Source: Candidatus Omnitrophota bacterium (lineage in GTDB: Bacteria; Omnitrophota; Gorgyraeia; Zapsychrales; Zapsychraceae). From it: a DNA stretch of 57,391 nt. This document shows, piece after piece, positions 706 through 55,292 of the stretch. The translations under genes were made by a program, and so were the position numbers. The DNA lies in NCBI GenBank assembly GCA_035292445.1, contig DATDQB010000021.1, positions 1 to 57,391 of the forward strand, given 5' to 3'. The notes below the pieces were generated by a model that was not told where the DNA came from, did no database searches, and worked only from the letters and a program-made list of their open reading frames with translations. How positions within the stretch are numbered: the stretch's first letter is position 1; the number at the start of each line of letters is the position of its first letter.

Positions 706-1418
706 GCAATTTCCTTCTTGAAAAATTCATCGATCTACTAAGTTCTGAGCCGCGGGGGAAAGTGCTGGATATCGGCTGCGGCGACGGCGATTACGCGCTT
801 GCGCTTCATCAGCTCGGTTTCGATGTGCTGGCCGCCGACATGGATGAAGCGCGGTTCAAATACAAAGATAAGATCAAATTCCAAAAATGTAACGTGGCAG
901 AGAAATTACCATTTAAGGACGGTTCGTTTAAATACATCGTGCTGGCGGAGGTTGTCGAGCATTTGAAGAATCCTTATGAGGTGATGGGAGAATTAAAGCG
1001 GATCTTGAAACCGGGCGGGAAACTCATCCTTTCGACGCCGAACATTTTGAACCTCAAGTCAAGAATGAGGTATTTGGTGGAAGGTTGTTGGGAATATTTC
1101 AGGGAGCCCTTGATAGAAAATTCTAAAAATCCCAGAATGGTCATTTGGAATTTGCATGTCATCCCCTGGAGATATCATGAATTGGAATATCTTCTTTATC
1201 ATTCGGGTTTGGCCATCGAAACAATAGCCACCAGCAGGCACCGCGGGCTTGGCTTATGTTTTCTCATCCCGCTCATTAAGTTGCAATTATACTTGAAAGC
1301 CCGCCGCGCCCGAAGCAAGGGAAATGTGGATTATATGAGGATCAATAAGATACTATCATCCAAGGATATGCTTTTCGGCGAGCATCTTGTCATCAAGGCC
1401 GTTAAAAAGATGGTTTAG
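702..1418 (+). CDS. Class I SAM-dependent methyltransferase
   Basis: VLDIGCGDG motif I, LPFKDGSF, EVVEHL, LKPGGKLILSTPN. TTG start overlaps the upstream TGA. Confidence 0.88.
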   Translation: MSNFLLEKFIDLLSSEPRGKVLDIGCGDGDYALALHQLGFDVLAADMDEARFKYKDKIKFQKCNVAEKLPFKDGSFKYIVLAEVVEHLKNPYEVMGELKRILKPGGKLILSTPNILNLKSRMRYLVEGCWEYFREPLIENSKNPRMVIWNLHVIPWRYHELEYLLYHSGLAIETIATSRHRGLGLCFLIPLIKLQLYLKARRARSKGNVDYMRINKILSSKDMLFGEHLVIKAVKKMV

Positions 1419-1422
1419 ACAG

Positions 1423-2190
1423 ATGAAGAATGAAAATATTTTAGAAATAATAAAGGTGTTTCTAAAATTGGGCTGTTCGGCCTTTGGGGGCCCCGTGGCT
1501 CACATCGCCATTTTGGGTGGCGGACTTTTGGGCATGATCCTTTTACGTTTTAAGGAACGAAGGAGCGATTAGAAATCGGCTTTCGCATTGCTCCCTTGGG
1601 GCGGTTTTGTAAAATTTAAAACGATTCCTTTGTTGGCAGCCTTTTCTCCCATCGTTGTTCAAGGCGTTTCACTTCCGGTATTGTTTTTAACGTTCCTTAA
1701 GATAGGTTTTGTCCTTTTTGGAAGCGGCTATGTCCTGATCGCTTATTTGGAAGGCGATTTTGTCAACAGGCTCGGATGGCTGACGCACCAGCAGCTGTTG
1801 GACGCGGTCGCCATCGGCCAGTTCACACCGGGGCCTGTATTGTCAACGGCGACTTTTATCGGGTATATCCTTCAGGGATTTTCGGGGGCTGTCATGGCAA
1901 CGGTCGCGATTTTTTTGCCGGCTTTTATTCTGGTCGCGCTCCTTAATCCCTTGATCCCGAAGATGCGCCGATCCAAATGGATGTCAAGCTTCTTGGATGC
2001 CGTCAATGTCAGTGCGGTCGGTATTATGGCGGCGGTGACGGTGATGTTATTTCGAGCCACCGCTTCCGATTGGAAAACCGCCTTGATAGCGCTAGCCAGC
2101 ATCGCGGTCACGTTACGATTTAAGAAGATAGGTTCTTTGTGGATCGTTTTGGGCGGCGCTTTGCTGGGTTATGTTTTTCGTTTGTTTTAA
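1423..2190 (+). pseudogene. chrA: Chromate efflux transporter (ChrA family), disrupted: internal deletion in the N-terminal half plus an in-frame TAG at 1570-1572
   Basis: N-terminal FLKLGCSAFGGPVAHIA jumps directly to LGGGLLG. The C-terminal half (FLKIGFVLFGSGYVL, AIGQFTPGP) is intact and in the same frame after a single TAG. Confidence 0.8.
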
Positions 2191-20612: not shown

Positions 20613-20684
20613 GTCCCTGTAGCTCAACGGATAGAGCGCTAGCCTCCGGAGCTGGAAGTACAGGTTCGATTCCTGTCAGGGACG
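20613..20684 (+). tRNA. tRNA-Arg (anticodon CCG)
   Basis: Cloverleaf: acceptor GTCCCTG/CAGGGAC, D arm GCTC/GAGC, anticodon arm CTAGC-CTCCGGA-GCTGG, T arm ACAGG-TTCGATT-CCTGT. CCA not encoded. Confidence 0.95.
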
Positions 20685-39987: not shown

Positions 39988-40062
39988 TGCCCTGTCGTCT
40001 AACAGGTAGGACATGAGAATCTGGATCTCAGTATCTTGGTTCGATTCCAAGCGGGGCAGCCA
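39988..40062 (+). tRNA. tRNA-Gln (anticodon CTG), CCA encoded
   Basis: Acceptor TGCCCTG/CGGGGCA (U1-A72), D arm GTCT/GGAC, anticodon arm TGAGA-ATCTGGA-TCTCA, T arm CTTGG-TTCGATT-CCAAG. Confidence 0.93.
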
Positions 40063-40456: not shown

Positions 40457-40491
40457 AGAGATCCATAAATTAGTTATAATTAAACTTGGAA

Positions 40492-40545
40492 GGCGATGAG
40501 GTTCGCCAAAACCACCCGGCAATAATGCGGGATGATAACCTCTAC
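40492..40545 (+). ncRNA. Fluoride riboswitch (crcB motif)
   Basis: GGCGATGAGGTTCGCC P1 followed by TGATAACCTCTAC pseudoknot partner, matching the crcB consensus GGCGAUG..GUUCGCC...UGAUGACUUCUAC. Confidence 0.88.
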
Positions 40546-40568
40546 TGAAAAAACGGTAGAGGTTTTTT
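40537..40568 (+). terminator. Riboswitch expression-platform terminator
   Basis: AACCTCTAC/GTAGAGGTT stem plus TTTTTT, overlapping the aptamer 3' strand. Confidence 0.82.
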
Positions 40569-40588
40569 ATTGGAAAGGAAATGAATAT

Positions 40589-41794
40589 ATGGAAAACATT
40601 TTTACAATTGCCGCACTCTGGCTCGGCTTCGCCGTATTATCAACCGTTATTGCCTATCATTTGAGGATTTCAATTGCCCTGGTAGAAATTTGCGTGGGGG
40701 TTGTTGCTGCCGCCATAGCGAATCAGTTTTTCGGCCAGGATGTTCTGGGCAGTAATCTGGAGTGGTTGCGTTTTCTGGCGGCAACGGGCGCTGTTTTACT
40801 GACATTTTTGGCAGGGGCGGAACTCGACCCGCGAGTTATTCGCACAAAATGGAAAGAAGTCTTAATCGTCGGGGTTTTCGGTTTCCTGGCGCCGTTTTTA
40901 GGCTGCGCGGCATTGGCCCATTTTGTCCTCCATTGGAATATCCAGGCAAGCTGGTTGGCGGGGGTGGCGCTTTCGACGACCTCGATGGCGGTCGTGTATG
41001 CCGTGATGCTGGAAACAGGTTTTAATAGAACTGAATTTGGGAAAGGTATTCTGGGTGCGTGTTTTATTAATGATTTGGGAACTGTTTTGGCGCTGGGGCT
41101 TTTGTTTGCGCCATTCACCTACAAAACGGTTATCTTTGTTCTTGTCAGCGCGATCGTCCTTGCTTTGTTCCCCTTTCTTACCTCATTATTAACGAAAATC
41201 TACGGCAACAGAACCGCGGCTATCAGGGCAAAATGGGTTATGTTCGTTTTATTTGGGCTGGGAGCCCTGGCGTTGTGGTCGGGCAGCGAGGCCGTCTTGC
41301 CGGCTTATATCGCCGGCATGCTTTTGGCCGAATTCGCGACAAAAGAAGAACATTGGGTAAAACGCCTACGAACGCTCACGGTCGGTTTTCTTACGCCGTT
41401 TTATTTCCTTCGGGCGGGAACGCTCGTTTCGGTGCCGGCGCTAGTGGCTGCGCCTATTATTTTTATGGTTTTGTTAGGAGGTAAAGTTGCGTCTAAGATT
41501 TTCGGATTATATCCGGTCATCAGCCGCTTCCGCCAAAACAATAGCGAACGATGGTTTTATACGCTTATGATGTCGACCGGATTGACGTTTGGGACCATTT
41601 CCGCTTTGTACGGCCTCTCGCATGGAATAGTCACTCAGGAACAATATTCTTTTCTTGTCGCCGCCGTGATCGCGAGCGCCGTTATTCCTACCATGATCGC
41701 CAACTTTGCATTCTTGCCCAAACATCTTCTCCCGGACGTTGCCGTGAAAAAACAGATGGGAAAAATTTCAGAAGGCGGCATAGATGAGGAATAA
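40589..41794 (+). CDS. Cation:proton antiporter (CPA family), under the fluoride riboswitch
   Basis: About 12 TM segments; FLAGAELD, LSTTSMAVV, CFINDLG, FLTPFYF and STGLTFG. Confidence 0.88.
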   Translation: MENIFTIAALWLGFAVLSTVIAYHLRISIALVEICVGVVAAAIANQFFGQDVLGSNLEWLRFLAATGAVLLTFLAGAELDPRVIRTKWKEVLIVGVFGFLAPFLGCAALAHFVLHWNIQASWLAGVALSTTSMAVVYAVMLETGFNRTEFGKGILGACFINDLGTVLALGLLFAPFTYKTVIFVLVSAIVLALFPFLTSLLTKIYGNRTAAIRAKWVMFVLFGLGALALWSGSEAVLPAYIAGMLLAEFATKEEHWVKRLRTLTVGFLTPFYFLRAGTLVSVPALVAAPIIFMVLLGGKVASKIFGLYPVISRFRQNNSERWFYTLMMSTGLTFGTISALYGLSHGIVTQEQYSFLVAAVIASAVIPTMIANFAFLPKHLLPDVAVKKQMGKISEGGIDEE

Positions 41795-47549: not shown

Positions 47550-47632
47550 TTTGCCACCTTAAGTCCAAGGCCAAGATCAAATATAATTTGCCATATTTTA
47601 CTTGGTTTAATAGAATATTACCAATATCCCCA

Positions 47633-47663
47633 CCGCTCGATCTCCCCGCTAACAAAAGGGGGG
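47633..47663 (+). repeat. Island leader module, copy 1 (no clear cargo gene)
   Basis: CCGCTCGAT-CT-CCCCGCTAACAAAAGGGGGG, preceded by TAGAAT at 47611. Confidence 0.75.
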
Positions 47664-47722
47664 CTCTACGTATGTTTACCATACAGATCTGTGAGTATAT
47701 TGATATGTATGGTAATTTTTAT

Positions 47723-47808
47723 TTGACAAAAGTTAGGTCGCAAAGTATAGTCTAATTCAATTCCCCCAAATATCCGCTCGATGACCCCGCTAACACAAAG
47801 GGGGAAAA
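47723..47808 (+). promoter_or_regulatory. Island promoter plus leader module, copy 2 (RAYT1)
   Basis: TTGACA (47723), 17-bp spacer, TATAGT (47746), TTCAATTCCCCCAA, CCGCTCGAT (47774), CCCCGCTAACACAAAGGGGG, then ATG 47809. Confidence 0.8.
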
Positions 47809-48309
47809 ATGTCTGAAAAAAACAGAAAATTTCTTCGTTTGAAGGGTTATGATTATTCGCAATGCGGGTATTATTTTGTTACCGTTTGTACCAAAGGCCG
47901 TGTGGAATGGTTTGGTAATATTAGGGGTGACAAAATGGAATTGAATGAATACGGCAAAATCGTAAATGATGCCTGGTATTGGTTGGAAAATCAATATGAA
48001 TATGTTTCATTGGATGAATTTATTATTATGCCGAATCATATTCATGGGATTATCTGTATAGATGATTGTAGGGGCGGTTCGCGAACCGCCCCTACGATAA
48101 AATCAATAGGACGATTGGTCGGTGCGTTTAAAACGGTATCCACAAAACAAATTAACCAGGTGCGTAATACGCCAGCCATGCAATTATGGCAACGATCATT
48201 TTTTGATCATATTATCCGCAATGAGGTATCATTACAGCGCATAAGAGAATACATCCGTTCCAATCTAATTATGTGGGCCGAAGATAAAGAGAATCCAGGA
48301 GAGGTATAA
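47809..48309 (+). mobile_element. REP-associated tyrosine transposase (IS200-like Y1 HUH), copy 1
   Basis: LKGYDYS..GYYFVTVC, MPNHIHG (HUH), FKTVS, WQRSFFDHIIRNE and IREYI. Confidence 0.9.
48068..48095. repeat. GTAG-type REP palindrome inside RAYT1
   Basis: Perfect 28-bp palindrome GTAGGGGCGGTTCG/CGAACCGCCCCTAC. Confidence 0.9.
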
Positions 48310-48335
48310 GGTAAATTGGGCTGGCAGGAAGGCAT

Positions 48336-48431
48336 AAAAAAAGAGAGGGAGTAACCTTCGGACGGAACCTTAGGTGTGCCCTCTCATCGTGATTCTGGTT
48401 AAAATATAGCACGCCGGCGGATCCCCGTCAA
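48336..48431 (-). ncRNA. Putative small RNA transcription unit, copy 1 (promoter, hairpin, U tract)
   Basis: Minus-strand TTGACG (48431-48426), 17-bp spacer, TATATT (48408-48403); GAGAGGG/CCCTCTC stem; U tract at 48342-48336; near-identical to 51842-51910. Confidence 0.68.
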
Positions 48432-48510
48432 TTTCTAATTTTTGTGTAGTTTTTTTGCCCTGATCCCCCGATGTCCTAAATTTTCCCTTCCCAAACCCTT
48501 TTCCCGCCCC

Positions 48511-48564
48511 TAGAATACTGACATCCCTACCGCTCGATGACACCCCTAACAAAAGGGGGAAATT
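48511..48564 (+). repeat. Island leader module, copy 3 (ORF6N gene)
   Basis: TAGAAT (48511), TACCGCTCGAT (48528-48538), CCCCTAACAAAAGGGGGAAATT, then ATG 48565. Confidence 0.78.
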
Positions 48565-49080
48565 ATGTCTTCAAGCAGCATCTCAACAGAAATTATCACC
48601 AACAAGATCTTCATCATTAGGGGCCAGAAAGTAATGCTCGATCGCGATCTGGCGGAGCTTTATGGTGTTGATACAAAACAACTCAAAAGAGCAGTTAAAA
48701 GAAATATAGCCCGCTTCCCGGAAGATTTTATGTTCGAATTAACACAGCAAGAGGACAACACTTTAAGGTACCAATTTGGCACCTTAAAAAGAGGTGAACA
48801 TACCAAATATTTGCCTTATGTTTTTACCGAGCAAGGGGTGGCCATGCTCTCAAGCGTTTTACGCTCAACGCGGGCGGTCCAGGTCAATATCGCCATCATG
48901 CGGGCGTTTGTCAGGTTGCGCGATATGCTTTCGTTGCACAAAGAGCTGGCGGTGAAGCTAAAGGAATTGGAGCGAAAGGTTGAGGGAAATACGGGGGCCA
49001 TACGTGATATTTTTAAAGTGCTTGAGTGGCTGAGGAAGGAAGAGGAGAAGCCTAAGGGGAAGATAGGGTTTCATCCATGA
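48565..49080 (+). CDS. ORF6N domain DNA-binding protein
   Basis: IRGQKVMLDRDLAELYGV, AVKRNIARFPEDFMFEL, PYVFTEQGVAMLSSVL. Confidence 0.92.
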   Translation: MSSSSISTEIITNKIFIIRGQKVMLDRDLAELYGVDTKQLKRAVKRNIARFPEDFMFELTQQEDNTLRYQFGTLKRGEHTKYLPYVFTEQGVAMLSSVLRSTRAVQVNIAIMRAFVRLRDMLSLHKELAVKLKELERKVEGNTGAIRDIFKVLEWLRKEEEKPKGKIGFHP

Positions 49081-49154
49081 AGTACGCCAATACCATCTGC
49101 ACCTGGCCTGCTGAAGAGCGGTTTCGTGAGCGGCTCGCGAAGTATGGCGAACAC
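49077..49154 (+). pseudogene. radC: 5' fragment of a radC gene (first about 26 codons)
   Basis: TICTWPAEERFRERLAKYGEH matches the RadC N-terminus, then runs into a hairpin element. Confidence 0.7.
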
Positions 49155-49273
49155 GGCGAGCACTTACGCTTACGGAGCGAAGCGAACGTAAGCGTTAGGC
49201 GCAGCCGCCCCGGTGAATTCGTCCGTCCGCTAAATAATGTCTGCGGACGCCCGGGGCATAAAAAGGAGAAATT

Positions 49274-49714
49274 ATGAAAGAAACATATAGAAGCACAATT
49301 TGTAATTGGCCGATTAATGATCGACCACGAGAGCGTTTGGCTAAATACGGAGAACATAATTTATCCAACACTGAACTCCTCGCCATCCTCTTGCGCACCG
49401 GCGTCAAAGGCGAGACCGCCATAGATCTGGCCCGCAAGATCCTTAACAAATTCAAAACCTTCCGCAACATGAGCCACACAGATAGCCGCTTCACCACCCC
49501 CATCATCCGCGAGATCTTCCAAAAGGCGCTGCAGAACTTCGCCACCTCAATCATTTGCGTGCATAATCATCCTTCAGGTATTGCGGCACCAAGCCATGAG
49601 GATAGGGAGTTTACGCGCAAGCTCAAACAGGTGGGAGAGGCGATGCAGATCAGTGTTTTGGATCATATAATTATCGGCAACAACGCGCATTATTCCTTTA
49701 CCGAATCCGTGTAG
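49274..49714 (+). pseudogene. radC: RadC/JAB-domain gene with in-frame internal deletion
   Basis: RPRERLAKYG..LSNTELLAILLRTG joined directly to REIFQKAL...HNHPSG...VLDHIIIG. Only 146 aa; the central region is absent. Confidence 0.72.
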
Positions 49715-49743
49715 GGTCACAGGAAAGTATCTCTTGAAATCGA

Positions 49744-49785
49744 CTTACACTACATATATACTTAAACAAACAAATGTAGTGTAAG
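49744..49785. promoter_or_regulatory. Palindromic operator over the promoter/RBS of the two-gene NTase operon
   Basis: Perfect 12-bp IR CTTACACTACAT / ATGTAGTGTAAG flanking TATACT, with the right arm abutting AAGGAGG. Confidence 0.75.
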
Positions 49786-49795
49786 GAGGCCGGCC

Positions 49796-50110
49796 GTGAG
49801 GATCTTAAAGAACATTCTTCAAGAGAGCGAGCAATATTACCTGGATATCCGAAAGAAAATTCGGCAGAGACTTGCCAAACTCTCCGGAGGAAGCGTCAAA
49901 AAACGGGTCATATCCGGTAAAATATATTATTATCTGCAGGTCAGGCAAGGGAAAAAGGTCGTCCATAAATATCTGGGCAAGAAAAAGCCTGAAGTACTCA
50001 TCAAAGAGATCGAAGAGCGGATCATGTTAAAGCAGGAATTAAAGAAAATTGATGAAGCGTTGAAGCTATTGCACAAAACAAAGGATCGCAAGCGTGGAAA
50101 AGGAAATTAA
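49796..50110 (+). CDS. Small basic hypothetical protein (candidate antitoxin/regulator)
   Basis: AAGGAGG plus GTG start; GSVKKRVISGKIYYYLQ...HKYLG motif with coiled-coil ends; overlaps the next gene. Confidence 0.7.
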   Translation: MRILKNILQESEQYYLDIRKKIRQRLAKLSGGSVKKRVISGKIYYYLQVRQGKKVVHKYLGKKKPEVLIKEIEERIMLKQELKKIDEALKLLHKTKDRKRGKGN

Positions 50111-50780
50111 ACGAATATTGAAAGTCTTTGAGAAGCATGGCTTGTTCGAAGAAGGCATTCTTCTCATCGGCAGCTGGTGCTTTCAGCTTTATCAAAAACA
50201 CCTCGATGTTCCTGCGTTCCCGTTGTTGACGCAGGATATAGATTTCCTGATTCCCAATCCGTATAAAGGCAAAATAGACAATGAGTTTATTGATGATCTA
50301 AAAGCGCTTGGATTCATGGCCGAGCACCGCAGAGACGGCTCGCTGTATTTATGGAATGCCGAGCTCAAGATCGAATTTATTACGCCGGAGAAAGGGAGGG
50401 GCGTGGATCGGGCTATCCTTATTAAGAATCTGGGATTCCGGGCCATTCCCTTGAGATTCGTGAACCTCTTATTGGATGGTTTTATCAGTATCAACGATGA
50501 CGGTGTACGCATATCCGTGCCAAAGCCGATCAATTTTTGTCTTCATAAGATCCTGATTATCAGCCGCCGCAGGAATACGGCCAAAGCGTTGAAGGATCTA
50601 CAGCATGCGGTTCATACCTTTAGTAAAGTCGATCATCAGGAGTTCCTCAAAGCCTTTAAAAAATTACCCCGCAAATGGCAATTAACGATCGAGCGCACTT
50701 TAATTAAATTCAAGTCGCAAGATCCTCTCTTGGAAGACCAGATCGAAAGAATGCTAGTTACCCTACAAACCACCAAATAA
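50094..50780 (+). CDS. GSU2403-family nucleotidyltransferase-fold protein
   Basis: LLIGSWC, TQDIDFL, IEFITP, PLRFVNLL, FCLHKILIS.RR and KALKD. Confidence 0.78.
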   Translation: MEKEIKRILKVFEKHGLFEEGILLIGSWCFQLYQKHLDVPAFPLLTQDIDFLIPNPYKGKIDNEFIDDLKALGFMAEHRRDGSLYLWNAELKIEFITPEKGRGVDRAILIKNLGFRAIPLRFVNLLLDGFISINDDGVRISVPKPINFCLHKILIISRRRNTAKALKDLQHAVHTFSKVDHQEFLKAFKKLPRKWQLTIERTLIKFKSQDPLLEDQIERMLVTLQTTK

Positions 50781-50822
50781 TATCACTTGTAAGGTAAAAT
50801 AACCGGTTAACTGCCGCTTCAG

Positions 50823-50968
50823 TCTGATCCCCTGATATCCTTCAACCTGATGCCCCGATAACCCGATGACCTTGAAGTTTGTGTCTTGCCCCTCGCATGC
50901 GCTCGGGGTTCTCGCGAGGAGTACCGAGCGGAACGCGAGGTATGTCCTGTGTCTTGTGACTTGTGTCT
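50823..50968. repeat. Degenerate YGATNNCC octamer and TGTGWCT heptamer arrays interrupted by a palindrome
   Basis: About 5 octamers at 50823-50868; TGTGTCT at 50880, 50948 and 50962, TGTGACT at 50955; CCTCGC/GCGAGG hairpin at 50891-50940. Confidence 0.65.
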
Positions 50969-51121
50969 TTTCCAATGGTAGAAAACTGTCAGCCAAACGC
51001 CCCCTCAACCCCCGTGAAGTCTTACCTTTATATAAAAAAATTACTATTAGATTAAGACGAACGGCCCCAAAGTGCGAGCGTAGCGAGCATTTGGGGGGTG
51101 AGCACTCCCCGAAGCCGAAAG

Positions 51122-51308
51122 TTGACAAACTTTACTCTATAACGTATAGTTTTATTCAATTCCCCCCAACATATCCGCTCGATTTCTAAACGAGCCCCGC
51201 TTTTTGCTTTCGCAAGAAAGTAGCGGGGCGAGTTAACCCCGGTGAATTCGTCCCGCCTTCTCTAAGGTGGCATGGGACGTCCGGGGCCCGCTAACACAAA
51301 GGGGGAAT
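51122..51308 (+). promoter_or_regulatory. Island promoter plus leader module, copy 4, split by an about 100-bp two-hairpin insert
   Basis: TTGACA (51122), 17-bp spacer, TATAGT (51145), TTCAATTCCCCCCAA, CCGCTCGAT (51175), insert, CCCGCTAACACAAAGGGGG (51287-51305), then ATG 51309. Confidence 0.8.
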
Positions 51309-51776
51309 ATGCCGCATCAAATTGATCAGTCAGGAAAAATTGAGGCAACAAGCAAGAACACCATTTTGTGTCTGTCGAATGATGAATGGATTGCCGTTAA
51401 GATAGAAGCGAAAGCCAAAAGGCAATTACAAGAGATCTTCCGTAGAAATGGGCAACCGAGGAATTTTGTCCTTTTTACCTTTTCTGCTGGGCTAGCCATT
51501 TTACTTGATAGAACTAAGCATATTTCCAGAATTATGGTGGATCAGGAATATTATGGGAAGGAAGCTGTTATCAAGAACATTGTTCTTAAAATGTTGAAGC
51601 ACCGTGAGGGACCGTTAGAAATTAATTTTGGTAATATTGGTAAGAAAGCGTTGGCGCATCATCGGGCTTATGCGGTGGCAACGGGAAGGCTTAAAGCATC
51701 CTATACGGTTGGATTGAAAGAGTTGTATTATAAAATAAAAATGACCGAGGTCGGTAAACGACTGAAGAACGCTTAA
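51309..51776 (+). CDS. Divergent DUF3800-like / RNase H-fold protein
   Basis: N-terminal IDQSG (compare the DUF3800 xDESG motif), IMVDQEY, and C-terminal AHHRAY in the position of the ADxxA helix. 155 aa. Confidence 0.55.
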   Translation: MPHQIDQSGKIEATSKNTILCLSNDEWIAVKIEAKAKRQLQEIFRRNGQPRNFVLFTFSAGLAILLDRTKHISRIMVDQEYYGKEAVIKNIVLKMLKHREGPLEINFGNIGKKALAHHRAYAVATGRLKASYTVGLKELYYKIKMTEVGKRLKNA

Positions 51777-51817
51777 GCCTCCGGTTGAAACGGAGTGGGT
51801 CGGCGTTCACTCGGTCA
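51733..51817 (-). ncRNA. Structured RNA overlapping the 3' end of the DUF3800-like gene
   Basis: TGACCGAG/CTCGGTCA closing stem, GTCG/CGAC, GAACGC/GCGTTC and CTCCG/CGGAG; minus-strand U tract (AAATAAAAA on +). Confidence 0.68.
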
Positions 51818-51841
51818 AATAATTAAATCTTTTTTAATAGC

Positions 51842-51929
51842 GAGAGGGAGTAACCTTCGGACGCAACCTAGGTGTGCCCTCTCATCGTGATTCTGCTTAG
51901 AATATAACACAGGCCTTAGGACAAGTCAA
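51842..51929 (-). ncRNA. Putative small RNA transcription unit, copy 2
   Basis: About 70-bp near-identical copy of 48343-48412, with minus-strand TTGACT (51929-51924), 17-bp spacer, TATATT (51906-51901). Confidence 0.68.
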
Positions 51930-51940
51930 ATCCCTTTTCC

Positions 51941-52047
51941 CCGATCCTCTGATAACCTGATCTCCTCCAACCCGATCCCCTGATCCCCCCGATATCCCGA
52001 TATCCTGATATCCTGATATCCTCCGACCTGATTCCCTGATACCCCGA
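51941..52047. repeat. Degenerate octamer tandem repeat (YGATNNCC, about 13 units)
   Basis: cgatcccc tgatcccc cgatatcc cgatatcc tgatatcc tgatatcc ... tgattccc tgataccc. Confidence 0.85.
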
Positions 52048-52142
52048 TGGCCTATAAGTTTTCCCTTCCCAAATCCCGCTCCCACCGCTAAAATACCCCC
52101 ATGCCCCCGTTCGCCCTCAACCCCGCCACCACGCGCTGACAT

Positions 52143-53108: not shown

Positions 53109-54641
53109 ATGGCCGGTAACGGTATTGGTGATTTAAGTTTCGCTTCAAAGCTTTGGAAAGCGGCGGATAAAATGCGTAATAATATGGATGCCGCTGAATA
53201 TAAGCATGTCGTTTTGGGGCTTATATTCCTGAAATATATTTCTGATGTATTTTTAGAAGTTTTCAATGAACTTCAAAAAGACAAACTTGCTGATTCGGAA
53301 GATATCGATGAATATCGCTCCCGAAATGTCTTCTGGGTCCCGCCTGATGCGCGCTGGTCTTATCTTCAGAAAAACGCCAAACAACCTACCATTGGAAAGA
53401 TAATCGATGACGCGATGGATGCTATTGAGCGCGATAATCCTTCGCTCAAAGGTGTCTTGTCTAAGAACTATGCTCGTCCAGCCCTTGATAAACAGCGCTT
53501 AGGAGAGCTTATTGATCTGATCGGCACGATGGGTTTGGGTGACAAAGAAAACCGGTCAAAAGACCTTTTAGGTCAGGTGTACGAATATTTTCTGGGACAG
53601 TTCGCTGATGCCGAAGGTAAAAAGGGAGGACAGTTTTATACGCCTCGTTGTATTGTCAGGCTTTTAGTTGAAATGCTTGAGCCATATAAGGGCCGTGTAT
53701 TCGACCCTTGCTGCGGCTCGGGAGGCATGTTCGTTCAAAGCGAGAAATTTGTGGAAGCCCACGATGGGCGTGTAGGTGATATCTCTATTTATGGCCAGGA
53801 ATCCAATCAAACCACGTGGCGATTGGCGATGATGAATTTAGCTATTCGCGGCATAGAGGCTAATATTCAGTGGGCGGATTCATTTCATAAAGATCTCCAA
53901 AAGGATTTGAAATCTGATTTTATTATTGCTAATCCTCCTTTCAATGTCAGCGATTGGAAGGGCGAGCTTTTGCGTGATGATCCTCGATGGAAATATGGGA
54001 CGCCACCGGTTGGTAATGCCAACTTCGCCTGGGTCCAACATTTCATTTATCATTTGGCTCCGGCAGGTGTTGCCGGCTTTGTTTTGGCTAATGGGTCAAT
54101 GTCTTCCAACACCTCAGGAGAAGGGGATATCAGAAAAGCTATCATTGAAGCTGATTTAATAGATTGCATGGTGGCATTACCCTCACAACTATTTTACAAC
54201 ACCATGATTCCAGCTTGTCTTTGGTTCATTGCTCGAGATAAGAAGAACCATAAGTTCAGAGACAGACGCGGCAAAACATTGTTTATTGATGCTCGCAATA
54301 TGGGGGAGATGATCGACCGCCGCCACCGTGATCTTACCAATGAAGAGATTCAAAAGATTGCCAAAACTTATCATGCTTGGCGAGGTGAAAAAGGCTGTGG
54401 TAAATATGAAGATATTAAAGGTTTTTGCAATGAAGCCACGTTTGATGATATTCGTAAACATGGGCATATCTTAACGCCTGGAAGATACGTTGGGACTGAG
54501 GATGTGGAAGAGGATGATGAAGTGTTTGAGGAGAAGATGAAGCGATTGACCGGTGAATTGAAAGAACAATTTAAAGAATCAGCCATGCTTGAAAAAGAAA
54601 TACAGAAGAATTTGAAACAAGTTGGTTTTCCGTTGGAGTAA
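53109..54641 (+). CDS. hsdM: Type I restriction-modification DNA methyltransferase subunit M
   Basis: [49 protein letters not shown]. Confidence 0.96.
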
Positions 54642-54647
54642 ACCTGA

Positions 54648-55292
54648 ATGCTTTATTTATATTTAGATGAAAGCGGGGATTTAGGGTTTGATTTTGTTAC
54701 TAAAAAGCCGTCAAAGTATTTTACGTTGAGCGTGCTTGTTGTTAAAGGACAAAAAAATAATCGTGCCATAATTAATACCGTTAAGCATACATTTAAACGT
54801 AAATTACATAAAAAGAAACTGCTTTTAGGGGGCGAATTAAAGGGGAGTAAGGTTTCTTTGGATATTAAGAAATATTTTTATAGGCAAATCGCGAAAATAG
54901 ATTTTAAGATTTATGCCCTTACACTTAATAAGAAGAGGGTTAATCAGAGTTTAGTCAGCGTAAAAGAGCGTCTATATAATTATATTGCCCGTTTGGTTCT
55001 TGACCAAATAGACATTAATAATGCGCATCAAAGGGTAATCTTTATTTTGGATAGAAGTAAAGGAAAACCGGAAATCGCTGACTTCAATAAATACATTTTT
55101 GATCAGATTAAAGGCAGACTTAATCCACAGATTCCTTTAGATATTGTACATAAACTTTCACATGAAATGCCAGGGCTTCAGGCGGCGGATCTTTTTGCGT
55201 GGGGAATCTTTAGGAAGTACGAAAAGCGGGATATGGAATGGTTCAATGTATTTAAAGGGAGTGTTATTTTTGATGACGTATATCTTCCATGA
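54648..55292 (+). CDS. DUF3800 domain protein (RNase H-like fold)
   Basis: YLDESGDLG, ELKGS, ILDRS and GLQAADLFAW. Confidence 0.85.
   Translation: MLYLYLDESGDLGFDFVTKKPSKYFTLSVLVVKGQKNNRAIINTVKHTFKRKLHKKKLLLGGELKGSKVSLDIKKYFYRQIAKIDFKIYALTLNKKRVNQSLVSVKERLYNYIARLVLDQIDINNAHQRVIFILDRSKGKPEIADFNKYIFDQIKGRLNPQIPLDIVHKLSHEMPGLQAADLFAWGIFRKYEKRDMEWFNVFKGSVIFDDVYLP

Follow-up and report, generated by a model that had tools for sequence, protein, structure and literature searches.

Introduction

In type I toxin-antitoxin systems such as txpA/RatA and bsrG/SR4 of Bacillus subtilis, the antisense RNA converges on the toxin gene and overlaps its 3′ end. Antitoxin genes are also found without a toxin, either as orphans or as phage pseudo-antitoxins, e.g. 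the pseudo-ToxI of phage PhiTE. In the type III systems (ToxIN, CptIN and TenpIN), and likewise in AbiF/RCd22, an endoribonuclease-type toxin is matched with a structured RNA that is conserved in sequence. The abiF-motif RNA RCd22 neutralises AbiF by direct binding, whether in cis or in trans, and is the nearest validated precedent for what we propose below (PMC12373285). A further group of structured RNAs, the DUF3800 motifs (Rfam DUF3800-I to XI; Weinberg et al. 2017), was published with no specific functional hypothesis from its discoverers (PMC5737381). Here we describe an RNA family that resembles each of these systems in part. Two copies of it are found on the minus strand of a 57,391-nucleotide contig from a Candidatus Omnitrophota bacterium (GenBank assembly GCA_035292445.1, contig DATDQB010000021.1; the whole stretch is called the window below), at 48431-48336 (copy 1) and 51929-51842 (copy 2). 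The family is normally placed tail-to-tail with a gene for an NYN-domain nuclease, and we consider it likely, though far from assured, that the RNA is an antidote of this toxin-like protein.

The family shares with the DUF3800 RNAs a convergent, structured small RNA (sRNA) with its own sigma-70 promoter and a U-rich tail lying on a stop codon, a distribution over several phyla, and a partner that is a small, probably nucleolytic protein. However, there is no homology between either the RNAs or the proteins: the partner here is an NYN protein, and its RNA is shorter, consisting of a single hairpin with a 5′ tail. The likeness to DUF3800-V, a member of which occurs in the same window, is one of module architecture and not of family membership. 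An earlier interpretation made from the letters of the window alone, which we call the sequence-only reading, had taken the two copies for antitoxin-like RNAs of the DUF3800-linked class. The antitoxin-like role remains the best reading, as far as we can infer; the DUF3800 affiliation was not found, the partner being NYN.

As in type I systems, the gene and the sRNA are convergent, and the 3′ end of the partner mRNA has its complement in the RNA, which has a promoter and a terminator of its own. Type I toxins, however, are small hydrophobic peptides, whereas the NYN partner is a soluble nuclease of about 170 amino acids. Moreover, the overlap at NYN loci takes in the stop codon and part of the coding sequence, and the RNA sequence is conserved across phyla, unlike that of type I antitoxins. 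The antisense relation is met by geometry at the NYN-linked loci; the window has no toxin mRNA, and there the read-through product of copy 2 is antisense to the 3′ end of a different gene, which encodes a protein of 155 amino acids (the 155-aa gene). In type III systems the antitoxin is located upstream on the same strand and usually consists of tandem repeats processed by the toxin, whereas the NYN-linked RNA is single-copy, convergent and downstream. That said, the RNA is conserved beyond the needs of pairing, which gives indirect support to a protein binding of the type III kind. Finally, both window copies, and a further copy on a contig that is labelled viral, are like the orphan and pseudo-antitoxins in having no toxin gene, and any antitoxin role of theirs is hypothetical.

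An RNA family convergent with NYN nuclease genes

We collected loci in two ways, by RNA and by protein. The RNA-first scan used the loop pattern GAGTAACCTTCGG-N8-14-GGTGTGCCC on the GTDB, with one genome per species, and returned 55 loci (genomes) from many phyla. The hosts include Patescibacteria, Chloroflexota, Gammaproteobacteria, Candidatus Scalindua, Clostridia, Actinomycetes, Candidatus Lindowbacteria and a Nanoarchaeota archaeon, among others. Nearly all of the 55 loci have the whole layout in common: an A-run and a hairpin, then CATCGTGAT, a -10 box in complement, 16-18 nucleotides of spacer and TTGACA, also in complement. Read as RNA, the layout runs from a promoter through a 5′ AUCACGAUG and the hairpin to a U-tract.

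In most RNA-first loci the gene converging on the unit encodes a protein of 165-180 amino acids with FIDSQN, KGNVDAEL and SGDGDF motifs and a basic C-terminal helix (KYSALLRKFRKYF...LKKKLGKK). This is a soluble NYN-domain protein (PF01936, PIN-like) with its conserved acidic residues intact. Among solved structures the uncharacterised VPA0982 (2qip) comes closest to it, the PADLOC match is to the generic NYN model only, and the source annotations go no further than 'NYN domain-containing' or 'LabA/DUF88 family'. A homology search found at least 8000 protein clusters, most of which belong to uncultivated lineages from the environment, Patescibacteria and Chloroflexota among them. Among the 50 RNA-first units that could be evaluated, 31 have a full-length NYN gene (about 170 amino acids) convergent upstream, nine have frameshifted or internally deleted remnants of one, and ten have none.

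To avoid the bias of an exact pattern, a second, NYN-first sample was chosen from metagenomes by protein alignment alone; these 80 loci are the best of at least 575 confirmed matches. In 73 of them R1, a covariance model of the RNA trained on an alignment of 59 units and derived from the RNA-first sample, matches the minus strand directly abutting the NYN gene. The remaining seven comprise two loci cut by contig ends and five with divergent variants, recognised by eye, that have the same promoter, a 5′ AUCACCA, the hairpin and the U-tract. A convergent sRNA is therefore present at all 78 evaluable NYN-first loci. The sequence-only reading had expected that some protein family would normally precede this RNA, and the NYN-domain nuclease fills that place in both samples (31/50 and 78/78).

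About half of the NYN genes have their stop codon inside the hairpin DNA, in two registers (GAG-TAA in 11, CCT-TAG in five), and the other stops are usually found within the complement of the U-tract or a few bases upstream. Since the stops take three different registers against the conserved hairpin in all, the nucleotide conservation is not due to an encoded peptide and the constraint must be on the RNA. The convergent overlap also means that the NYN mRNA is perfectly complementary to the sRNA over its 3′ end. A leaderless mini-ORF (open reading frame) in the RNA itself, AUG AGA GGG CAC ACC UAA, was considered and rejected, being present in the class A RNAs (the window type) and absent from classes B to D.

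In the TTGACA-16/18-TATAAT layout of the promoter, 106 of 127 units match the consensus at 10 or more of 12 positions. The -10 box most often ends six nucleotides ahead of AUCAC in these 127 units, so transcription should begin at or just before the motif. AUCACGAUG is nearly invariant (alignment A2), and every RNA class retains AUCAC(G/C)A. At the other end, a U-rich tail (at least six U in nine nucleotides) is found in 29 of 31 NYN-linked units and in 17 of 19 orphan or remnant units.

The hairpin consists of three stems, P1, P2 and P3, with a U-rich, UUCG-like apical loop, and both window copies conform to it. Compensatory changes are seen at all seven P1 and all four P2 pairs. In the alignment, which was fitted to the model and is somewhat in favour of the structure for that reason, 94% of the paired cells can pair, compared with 43-69% when the 3′ partners are slid, and no shuffle matched the observed covariation score. 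G-U pairs outnumber A-C pairs by 52 to 13, an excess that favours folding of the minus strand over the plus strand. The fold is modestly supported by single sequences and strongly backed by the covariation of the family.

No Rfam 15 family was found for this RNA, or for the second RNA module described below, in the window at gathering thresholds or between 47 and 53 kb at E ≤ 10 with permissive filters. The sequence-only reading had named DUF3800-I to XI and abiF among the candidates; these families, along with drum and skipping-rope, do not match the copies. One chance match at the copies, to rli24, scored 18 bits against a gathering score of 100. Six canonical loci of classes A to D gave no Rfam match at E ≤ 1. 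No description of an NYN gene (NYN, DUF88 or LabA) paired with a small RNA was found in a search of open-access papers and bioRxiv. The NYN-linked RNA family is apparently large, and seemingly neither annotated nor described.

Some further occurrences of the unit may be mentioned here. Identical loci are found in several metagenome assemblies. The genome L010, a Clostridia metagenome assembly, has two units 4.7 kb apart, one behind an NYN gene and the other behind an ORF6N-type gene; an ORF6N gene adjoins copy 1 in the window as well. Positions 1400-1467 (plus strand) of contig IMGVR_UViG_3300035688_000028 (L148, the same as L001) hold a copy of the 5′ motif and hairpin that scores 71 bits and is without promoter or U-tract, in the same orientation as the preceding ORFs. 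The contig is labelled viral by IMG/VR, and annotation with PHROGs gave families of unknown function only, which does not confirm a viral origin. This copy could be a phage-borne mimic of the RNA, with the caveat that the viral label is unconfirmed. Within the window, the 9-mer CATCGTGAT, complementary to the 5′ tail of the RNA, is also found at 2641 (plus strand), 8296 (minus strand) and 28717 (minus strand), for a total of five occurrences against 0.43 expected, a weak excess.

The two copies in the window

The sequence-only reading had described two copies of about 70 bp, each with a minus-strand promoter of the form TTGAC(G/T)-17-TATATT, and both parts of this description hold. Between the repeats at 48343-48412 and 51842-51910 there are four substitutions and a single-base indel over about 70 nucleotides, and a 27-mer common to them occurs exactly twice in the window and in none of 100 shuffles. 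The copy 1 promoter (48403-48431, minus strand) has a -35 box TTGACG at 48431-48426, a spacer of 17 nucleotides and a TG-extended -10 box TATATT at 48408-48403. That of copy 2 (51901-51929, minus strand) has TTGACT at 51929-51924, again a 17-nucleotide spacer, and a TG-extended TATATT at 51906-51901. Both are of the sigma-70 type and match the consensus at 10 of 12 positions. The spacers had been said to differ completely; they are indeed unrelated overall, but the last three to four nucleotides (GTG) beside the -10 box are common to both. The selection on promoter function that was proposed on this basis is now supported by the wider family, in which 106 of 127 units keep the promoter.

Transcription is predicted to start near A48396 in copy 1 and near A51894 in copy 2. 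The distance from the -10 box to AUCACGAUG is nine nucleotides in both, and seven of the nine bases in the stretch between the -10 box and AUCAC are common to the two copies, a stretch that is unrelated in other genomes. In copy 1 the motif AUCACGAUG (48385-48393, minus strand) is predicted to be single-stranded except that its final G is the first base of stem P1. The hairpin (48343-48385, minus strand) is made up of P1 GAGAGGG/CCCUCUC, an internal loop, P2 ACCU/AGGU, an AA/GA loop and P3 GG/CC, closed by the apical loop UUCCGU. The corresponding region of copy 2 is at 51842-51891 (minus strand), with AUCACGAUG at 51891-51883 and the hairpin at 51883-51842. As the sequence-only reading had proposed, GAGAGGG/CCCUCUC around ACCU/AGGU is the minimum free energy structure of both copies, and the covariation described above supports it; the same fold encloses a GG/CC tip. 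The folding energies are -19.5 kcal/mol for copy 1 and -18.9 kcal/mol for copy 2 (z-scores -2.4 and -1.8).

The copies part ways straight after P1. Copy 1 has a U7 tract (48336-48342, minus strand) that would act as an intrinsic terminator, giving a predicted RNA of about 60 nucleotides (48396-48337). Copy 2 has no U-tract behind its hairpin, and GCUAUUAAAAAA / GCUAUUAAA stands there instead.

R1 scores copy 1 at 88.2 bits (E 7e-22) and copy 2 at 73.6 bits (E 9e-18), both of which are part of its training alignment, and independent NYN-first members score 67-91 bits. The next best score in the window is 12.9 bits, so that the window holds just these two matches, in the same orientation. Membership of both copies in the NYN-associated sRNA family is nearly certain, with copy 2 appearing as a truncated or fused member. 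The flanks on the promoter side are homologous too, as had been claimed, with an identity of 76-89% (repeat families D1 and D5). For copy 1 this flank (48460-48527, plus strand) consists of CTGATNNC 8-mers and a TTCCCA-17-TAGAAT promoter-like site ahead of an ORF6N gene. For copy 2 (51938-52105, plus strand) it consists of about 14 CTGATNNC 8-mers and a TTCCCA-17-TAAAAT promoter-like site ahead of a lipase-like gene. The duplication around the copies is wider still, taking in a shared leader, a cargo gene, the sRNA unit, the 8-mer repeats and a promoter downstream, and the two copies are true paralogues.

Copy 1 and the missing nuclease gene

The position that the NYN gene takes in other genomes is occupied at copy 1 by a gene for a RAYT/IS200-like Y1 transposase (47809-48309, plus strand; PF01797, NF047646), and copy 1 is situated 27 nucleotides past its stop codon (48307-48309). 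A tblastn search of the window with 28 NYN proteins found no NYN homology beyond the few codons encoded by the hairpin itself, in agreement with the earlier statement that the window has no cognate gene. The interval between the RAYT stop codon and copy 1 (48310-48335, plus strand) contains AAATTGGG, which resembles the ...KLG... codons at the 3′ ends of NYN genes. This stretch may be a deletion remnant and the last trace of an NYN gene, although the comparison was made by eye and is weak. Copy 1 is most likely an intact orphan left by the deletion or replacement of its toxin gene, and it may still act in trans. We also note a perfect 34-nucleotide palindrome (ATTGTAGGGGCGGTTCG/CGAACCGCCCCTACGAT) within the RAYT-like ORF, at 48065-48098 of the window.

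Copy 2 and the RNA of the 155-aa gene

At copy 2 the terminator is replaced by an A/U-rich linker of 24 nucleotides (GCUAUUAAAAAAGAUUUAAUUAUU; 51818-51841, minus strand) that joins the hairpin to a second RNA module (51742-51817, minus strand). This module is predicted to form a three-way junction and is antisense to the last 35 nucleotides, including the stop codon, of the 155-aa gene (51309-51776, plus strand), whose protein family is without a Pfam assignment. The downstream structure noted by the sequence-only reading, together with the U tract in copy 1 and its lack in copy 2, is real: the element at 51817-51742 folds with a z-score of -3.9 on the minus strand. In the 171-nucleotide segment 51896-51726, which contains the predicted transcript, the second module folds independently of the hairpin (z-score -3.3). 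Behind it is a U-rich tail, AUUUUUAUUUUAU (51729-51741, minus strand), and the homologues end in GGUCUUUUUU. The product of copy 2 is probably a chimeric RNA of about 166 nucleotides (51894-51729) with its 3′ end in this tail.

The second module is a conserved convergent sRNA of the 155-aa family, present in the homologous loci L137, L143, L144, L145, L146 and L157, with some covariation and a U-tract. It has a TTGAxx-16/17-TAnAAT promoter of its own in L137, L144, L145, L146 and L157, and none in L143 or the window, where the native promoter is substituted by the NYN-type promoter and hairpin. L143 is from a different metagenome and encodes a protein 78% identical to that of the window, and its order of promoter, hairpin and second module is identical, with a junction of about five nucleotides. 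The simplest reading of the copy 2 fusion would be a promoter capture in which the hairpin supplies a structured 5′ end; a dual function of the fused RNA is possible. The tandem two-module RNA proposed by the sequence-only reading is therefore plausible, given that the fusion recurs in L143. An orphaned state, one of the two options in that reading, fits copy 1; copy 2 is not simply orphaned, being the promoter and 5′ end donor for the antisense RNA of the 155-aa gene. The RNA of the 155-aa family itself appears to be a second unannotated RNA family.

The 155-aa protein has 113 close homologues, and its family comprises 1087 clusters at 50% identity. No Pfam match was found among 42 members plus 10 more distant members, and a sequence search of the PDB gave no match for the protein. 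Its AlphaFold model has a pLDDT of 92, and the Foldseek matches are weak and mostly to proteins of RNase H-like fold (best E 0.07). The N-terminal IDQSG motif of the family recalls the LDESG of DUF3800. We considered a relationship with NYN (hhalign probability 0.1%, not significant) and with DUF3800 (0.15%, with only the IDQSG/LDESG motif aligned) and rejected both.

An antidote for a toxin-like nuclease?

Two patterns carry the antidote reading. One is the conservation of the RNA. Between pairs of class A loci the RNAs are 87% identical, compared with 66% for the adjacent NYN coding sequence and 39% for its third codon positions. A cis-antisense RNA needs no such conservation, as both strands change together, and it follows that something else reads the RNA sequence, most simply the protein. 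The other pattern is the order of loss. An intact NYN gene is missing from about 38% of RNA-first units, so the NYN gene is a defining feature of the module and not of the RNA. No NYN gene without the RNA was seen, whereas RNA units without NYN are common. The units that have lost the gene are kept in similar shape, with the promoter retained in 13 of 19 orphan or remnant units versus 22 of 31 NYN-linked units and the exact 5′ motif in 14 of 19 versus 24 of 31. An RNA that outlasts its gene is what we would expect if losing the RNA were harmful and losing the protein were not, as for a toxin and its antidote.

How such an antidote would work can be sketched. Transcription from the sigma-70 promoter would start at or just before AUCACGA(UG), and the U-tract would end the RNA at, or a few nucleotides from, the NYN stop codon. 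The sRNA may then pair with the 3′ end of the NYN mRNA, where cleavage of the duplex would remove the stop codon or destabilise the message. Alternatively, or besides forming this duplex, it may attach to the NYN protein itself. Such binding would account for unpaired nucleotides and a 5′ tail that are conserved far better than the coding sequence beside them, and direct neutralisation in trans, of the type III kind, would also explain the survival of orphans. In the window the NYN gene is gone and copy 1 is an orphan of about 60 nucleotides; copy 2 has lost its terminator and stands in place of the native promoter of the antisense RNA of the 155-aa gene, its predicted product being the chimera of about 166 nucleotides. 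Blocking of the ribosome-binding site or of translation, as in classical type I systems, was dropped as a candidate because there is no excess pairing with the 5′ untranslated and start region of NYN.

Several points weigh against the antidote reading. Complementarity between the sRNA and the NYN 5′ region is no better than in shuffled sequences (mean z-score +0.19, n=101), which means that any antisense action would have to be at the 3′ end. Every functional step is one that we infer from sequence. This NYN subfamily could consist of ordinary RNA-processing enzymes with an antisense regulator, and the orphan copies may simply be young relics. The absence of an NYN gene refers to the 57-kb window. 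The folding z-scores of single sequences are modest (-1.8 to -2.4). Both samples are also selective: the RNA-first scan needed 22 exact bases and is biased to conserved copies, and the NYN-first loci are the best of their matches.

We can also imagine a broader version of the antidote reading, which is possible but distinctly more tentative. The NYN-linked RNA would be a protein-binding, trans-acting antidote that combines the layout of type I with the mechanism of type III. It would belong to a general class in which a nuclease-like gene is faced by a convergent sRNA with its terminator on the stop codon, a class that would include the RNAs of the DUF3800 and 155-aa families. Orphans would then confer immunity to incoming NYN toxins, and the promoter with the 5′ hairpin would be a portable module that can be captured, as in copy 2 and L143.

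The alternative that survives best, though we think it unlikely, is that the RNA is purely a cis-antisense regulator of the 3′ end of the NYN mRNA, similar to type I, with the window copies as functionless relics and the copy 2 fusion as an accident. The geometry by itself makes the RNA complementary to the mRNA 3′ end, with the stops in or beside the hairpin; copy 2 has lost its terminator, and the contexts of the orphans are heterogeneous. However, a pure antisense regulator does not account for loops and a 5′ tail that are nearly invariant, or for an RNA far more conserved than the coding sequence. Neither do relics account for orphans that retain promoter, motif and terminator as well as the linked copies do, nor an accident for a fusion that is retained between proteins only 78% identical.

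It is less likely still that the NYN protein is a housekeeping or conditional RNase, with the sRNA as its regulator, substrate or cofactor and no addiction or defence module involved. NYN/LabA proteins have non-toxin roles elsewhere, and the generic PADLOC match is in keeping with this. On the other hand, proteins of 60-80% identity are spread patchily over unrelated phyla, including an archaeon, the gene frequently decays while the RNA is retained, and the window units are located in an island with restriction-modification, DUF3800, RadC, ORF6N and transposase genes. The patchy spread, the gene decay and the island setting all fit mobile, dispensable modules.

The idea that the element is only a terminator or insulator hairpin, with fortuitous promoter-like boxes, is highly improbable. 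The hairpin and U-tract do form a textbook intrinsic terminator of the minus strand. Yet 106 of 127 units have conserved -35 and -10 boxes at a set distance, with spacers that vary freely, the promoter can drive this RNA alone, and the conserved 5′ tail and internal loops are unneeded for termination; moreover, the terminator faces away from the NYN gene and cannot end its transcript. Just as improbable is a REP/MITE-like element tied to RAYT-type transposases, or an integron attC site: a RAYT-like gene is directly upstream of copy 1, another adjoins the DUF3800-V RNA, and the island is cassette-like with repeated leaders, but the 57 kb hold two copies only, in the same orientation and just one of them beside a RAYT gene, the unit is tied elsewhere to NYN and not RAYT, neither terminal inverted repeats nor target duplications nor an integrase came to light, and the homology stops at the -35 box and the U-tract.

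If the antidote reading is correct, a very large family of NYN/LabA-type nucleases is controlled by a dedicated RNA of 60 nucleotides that is annotated in no database. One 10-kb island contains three independent cases of one architecture: the NYN-type RNA, DUF3800 together with the DUF3800-V RNA, and the 155-aa family together with its RNA. The idea of a nuclease and its antidote RNA is also a concrete, testable hypothesis for the DUF3800 motifs. With its short length and invariant 5′ tail, the RNA should lend itself to an easy co-expression test in Escherichia coli. The orphan and fused copies in the window are natural experiments on trans action and modularity.

Other features of the island

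The DUF3800-V RNA of the window (55396-55297, minus strand; 74.6 bits) is the sole relevant Rfam match and is found 3.5 kb from the copy 2 region. Its near-consensus promoter (TTGACA-17-TATACT, 55426-55398) ends two nucleotides before the Rfam match, and its U-rich tail extends over the stop codon of the convergent DUF3800 gene (54648-55292, plus strand). This gene and its RNA are located between hsdM (53109-54641) and hsdS (55795-57312) of a type I restriction-modification system, along with a second Y1 transposase-like ORF (55518-56081).

Several leader sequences recur. One, CCGCTCGAT..CCCCGCTAACA(A/C)AAAGGGGG, immediately precedes the start codon in three genes, RAYT, ORF6N and 155-aa, at 47619-47665, 47760-47806, 48516-48562 and, in two parts, 51164-51183 and 51287-51307; the Shine-Dalgarno sequence would be masked by its CCCC/GGGG hairpin. 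Two of these genes, RAYT and 155-aa, have an upstream promoter in common as well, TTGACAAA-17-TATAGT (47723 and 51122). The leaders at 49208-49258 and 51237-51285, which precede the RadC-like and 155-aa genes, share CCCCGGTGAATTCGTCC...CCGGGG, with an outer stem that is conserved and an inner stem that differs yet pairs; they have no Rfam match. Tandem arrays of the 8-nucleotide unit CTGATNNC, up to about 14 units long, are found in intergenic positions at 48460-48477, 50817-50872 and 51938-52053. Two of the three are followed by a conserved TTTTCCCTTCCCAAA...TA(G/A)AAT promoter-like site, and the arrays may be repeated binding sites for a regulator.

An overlapping pair of genes at 49796-50780 of the window encodes a DUF6788 protein of 104 amino acids and a nucleotidyltransferase of 228 amino acids (PF12281), and looks like a two-gene module of the toxin-antitoxin type. 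Its neighbours are the ORF6N (48565-49080) and RadC-like (49274-49714) genes. Because these adjoin the DUF6788/nucleotidyltransferase pair, the whole stretch from 47.5 to 57 kb is a mobile or defence island. Elsewhere in the window there is a fluoride riboswitch (40483-40551, plus strand; 40.8 bits) ahead of a gene of the Na+/H+ exchanger family (40532-41794), and there are tRNA genes at 20613-20684 and 39988-40059, both on the plus strand; these look like ordinary chromosomal features.

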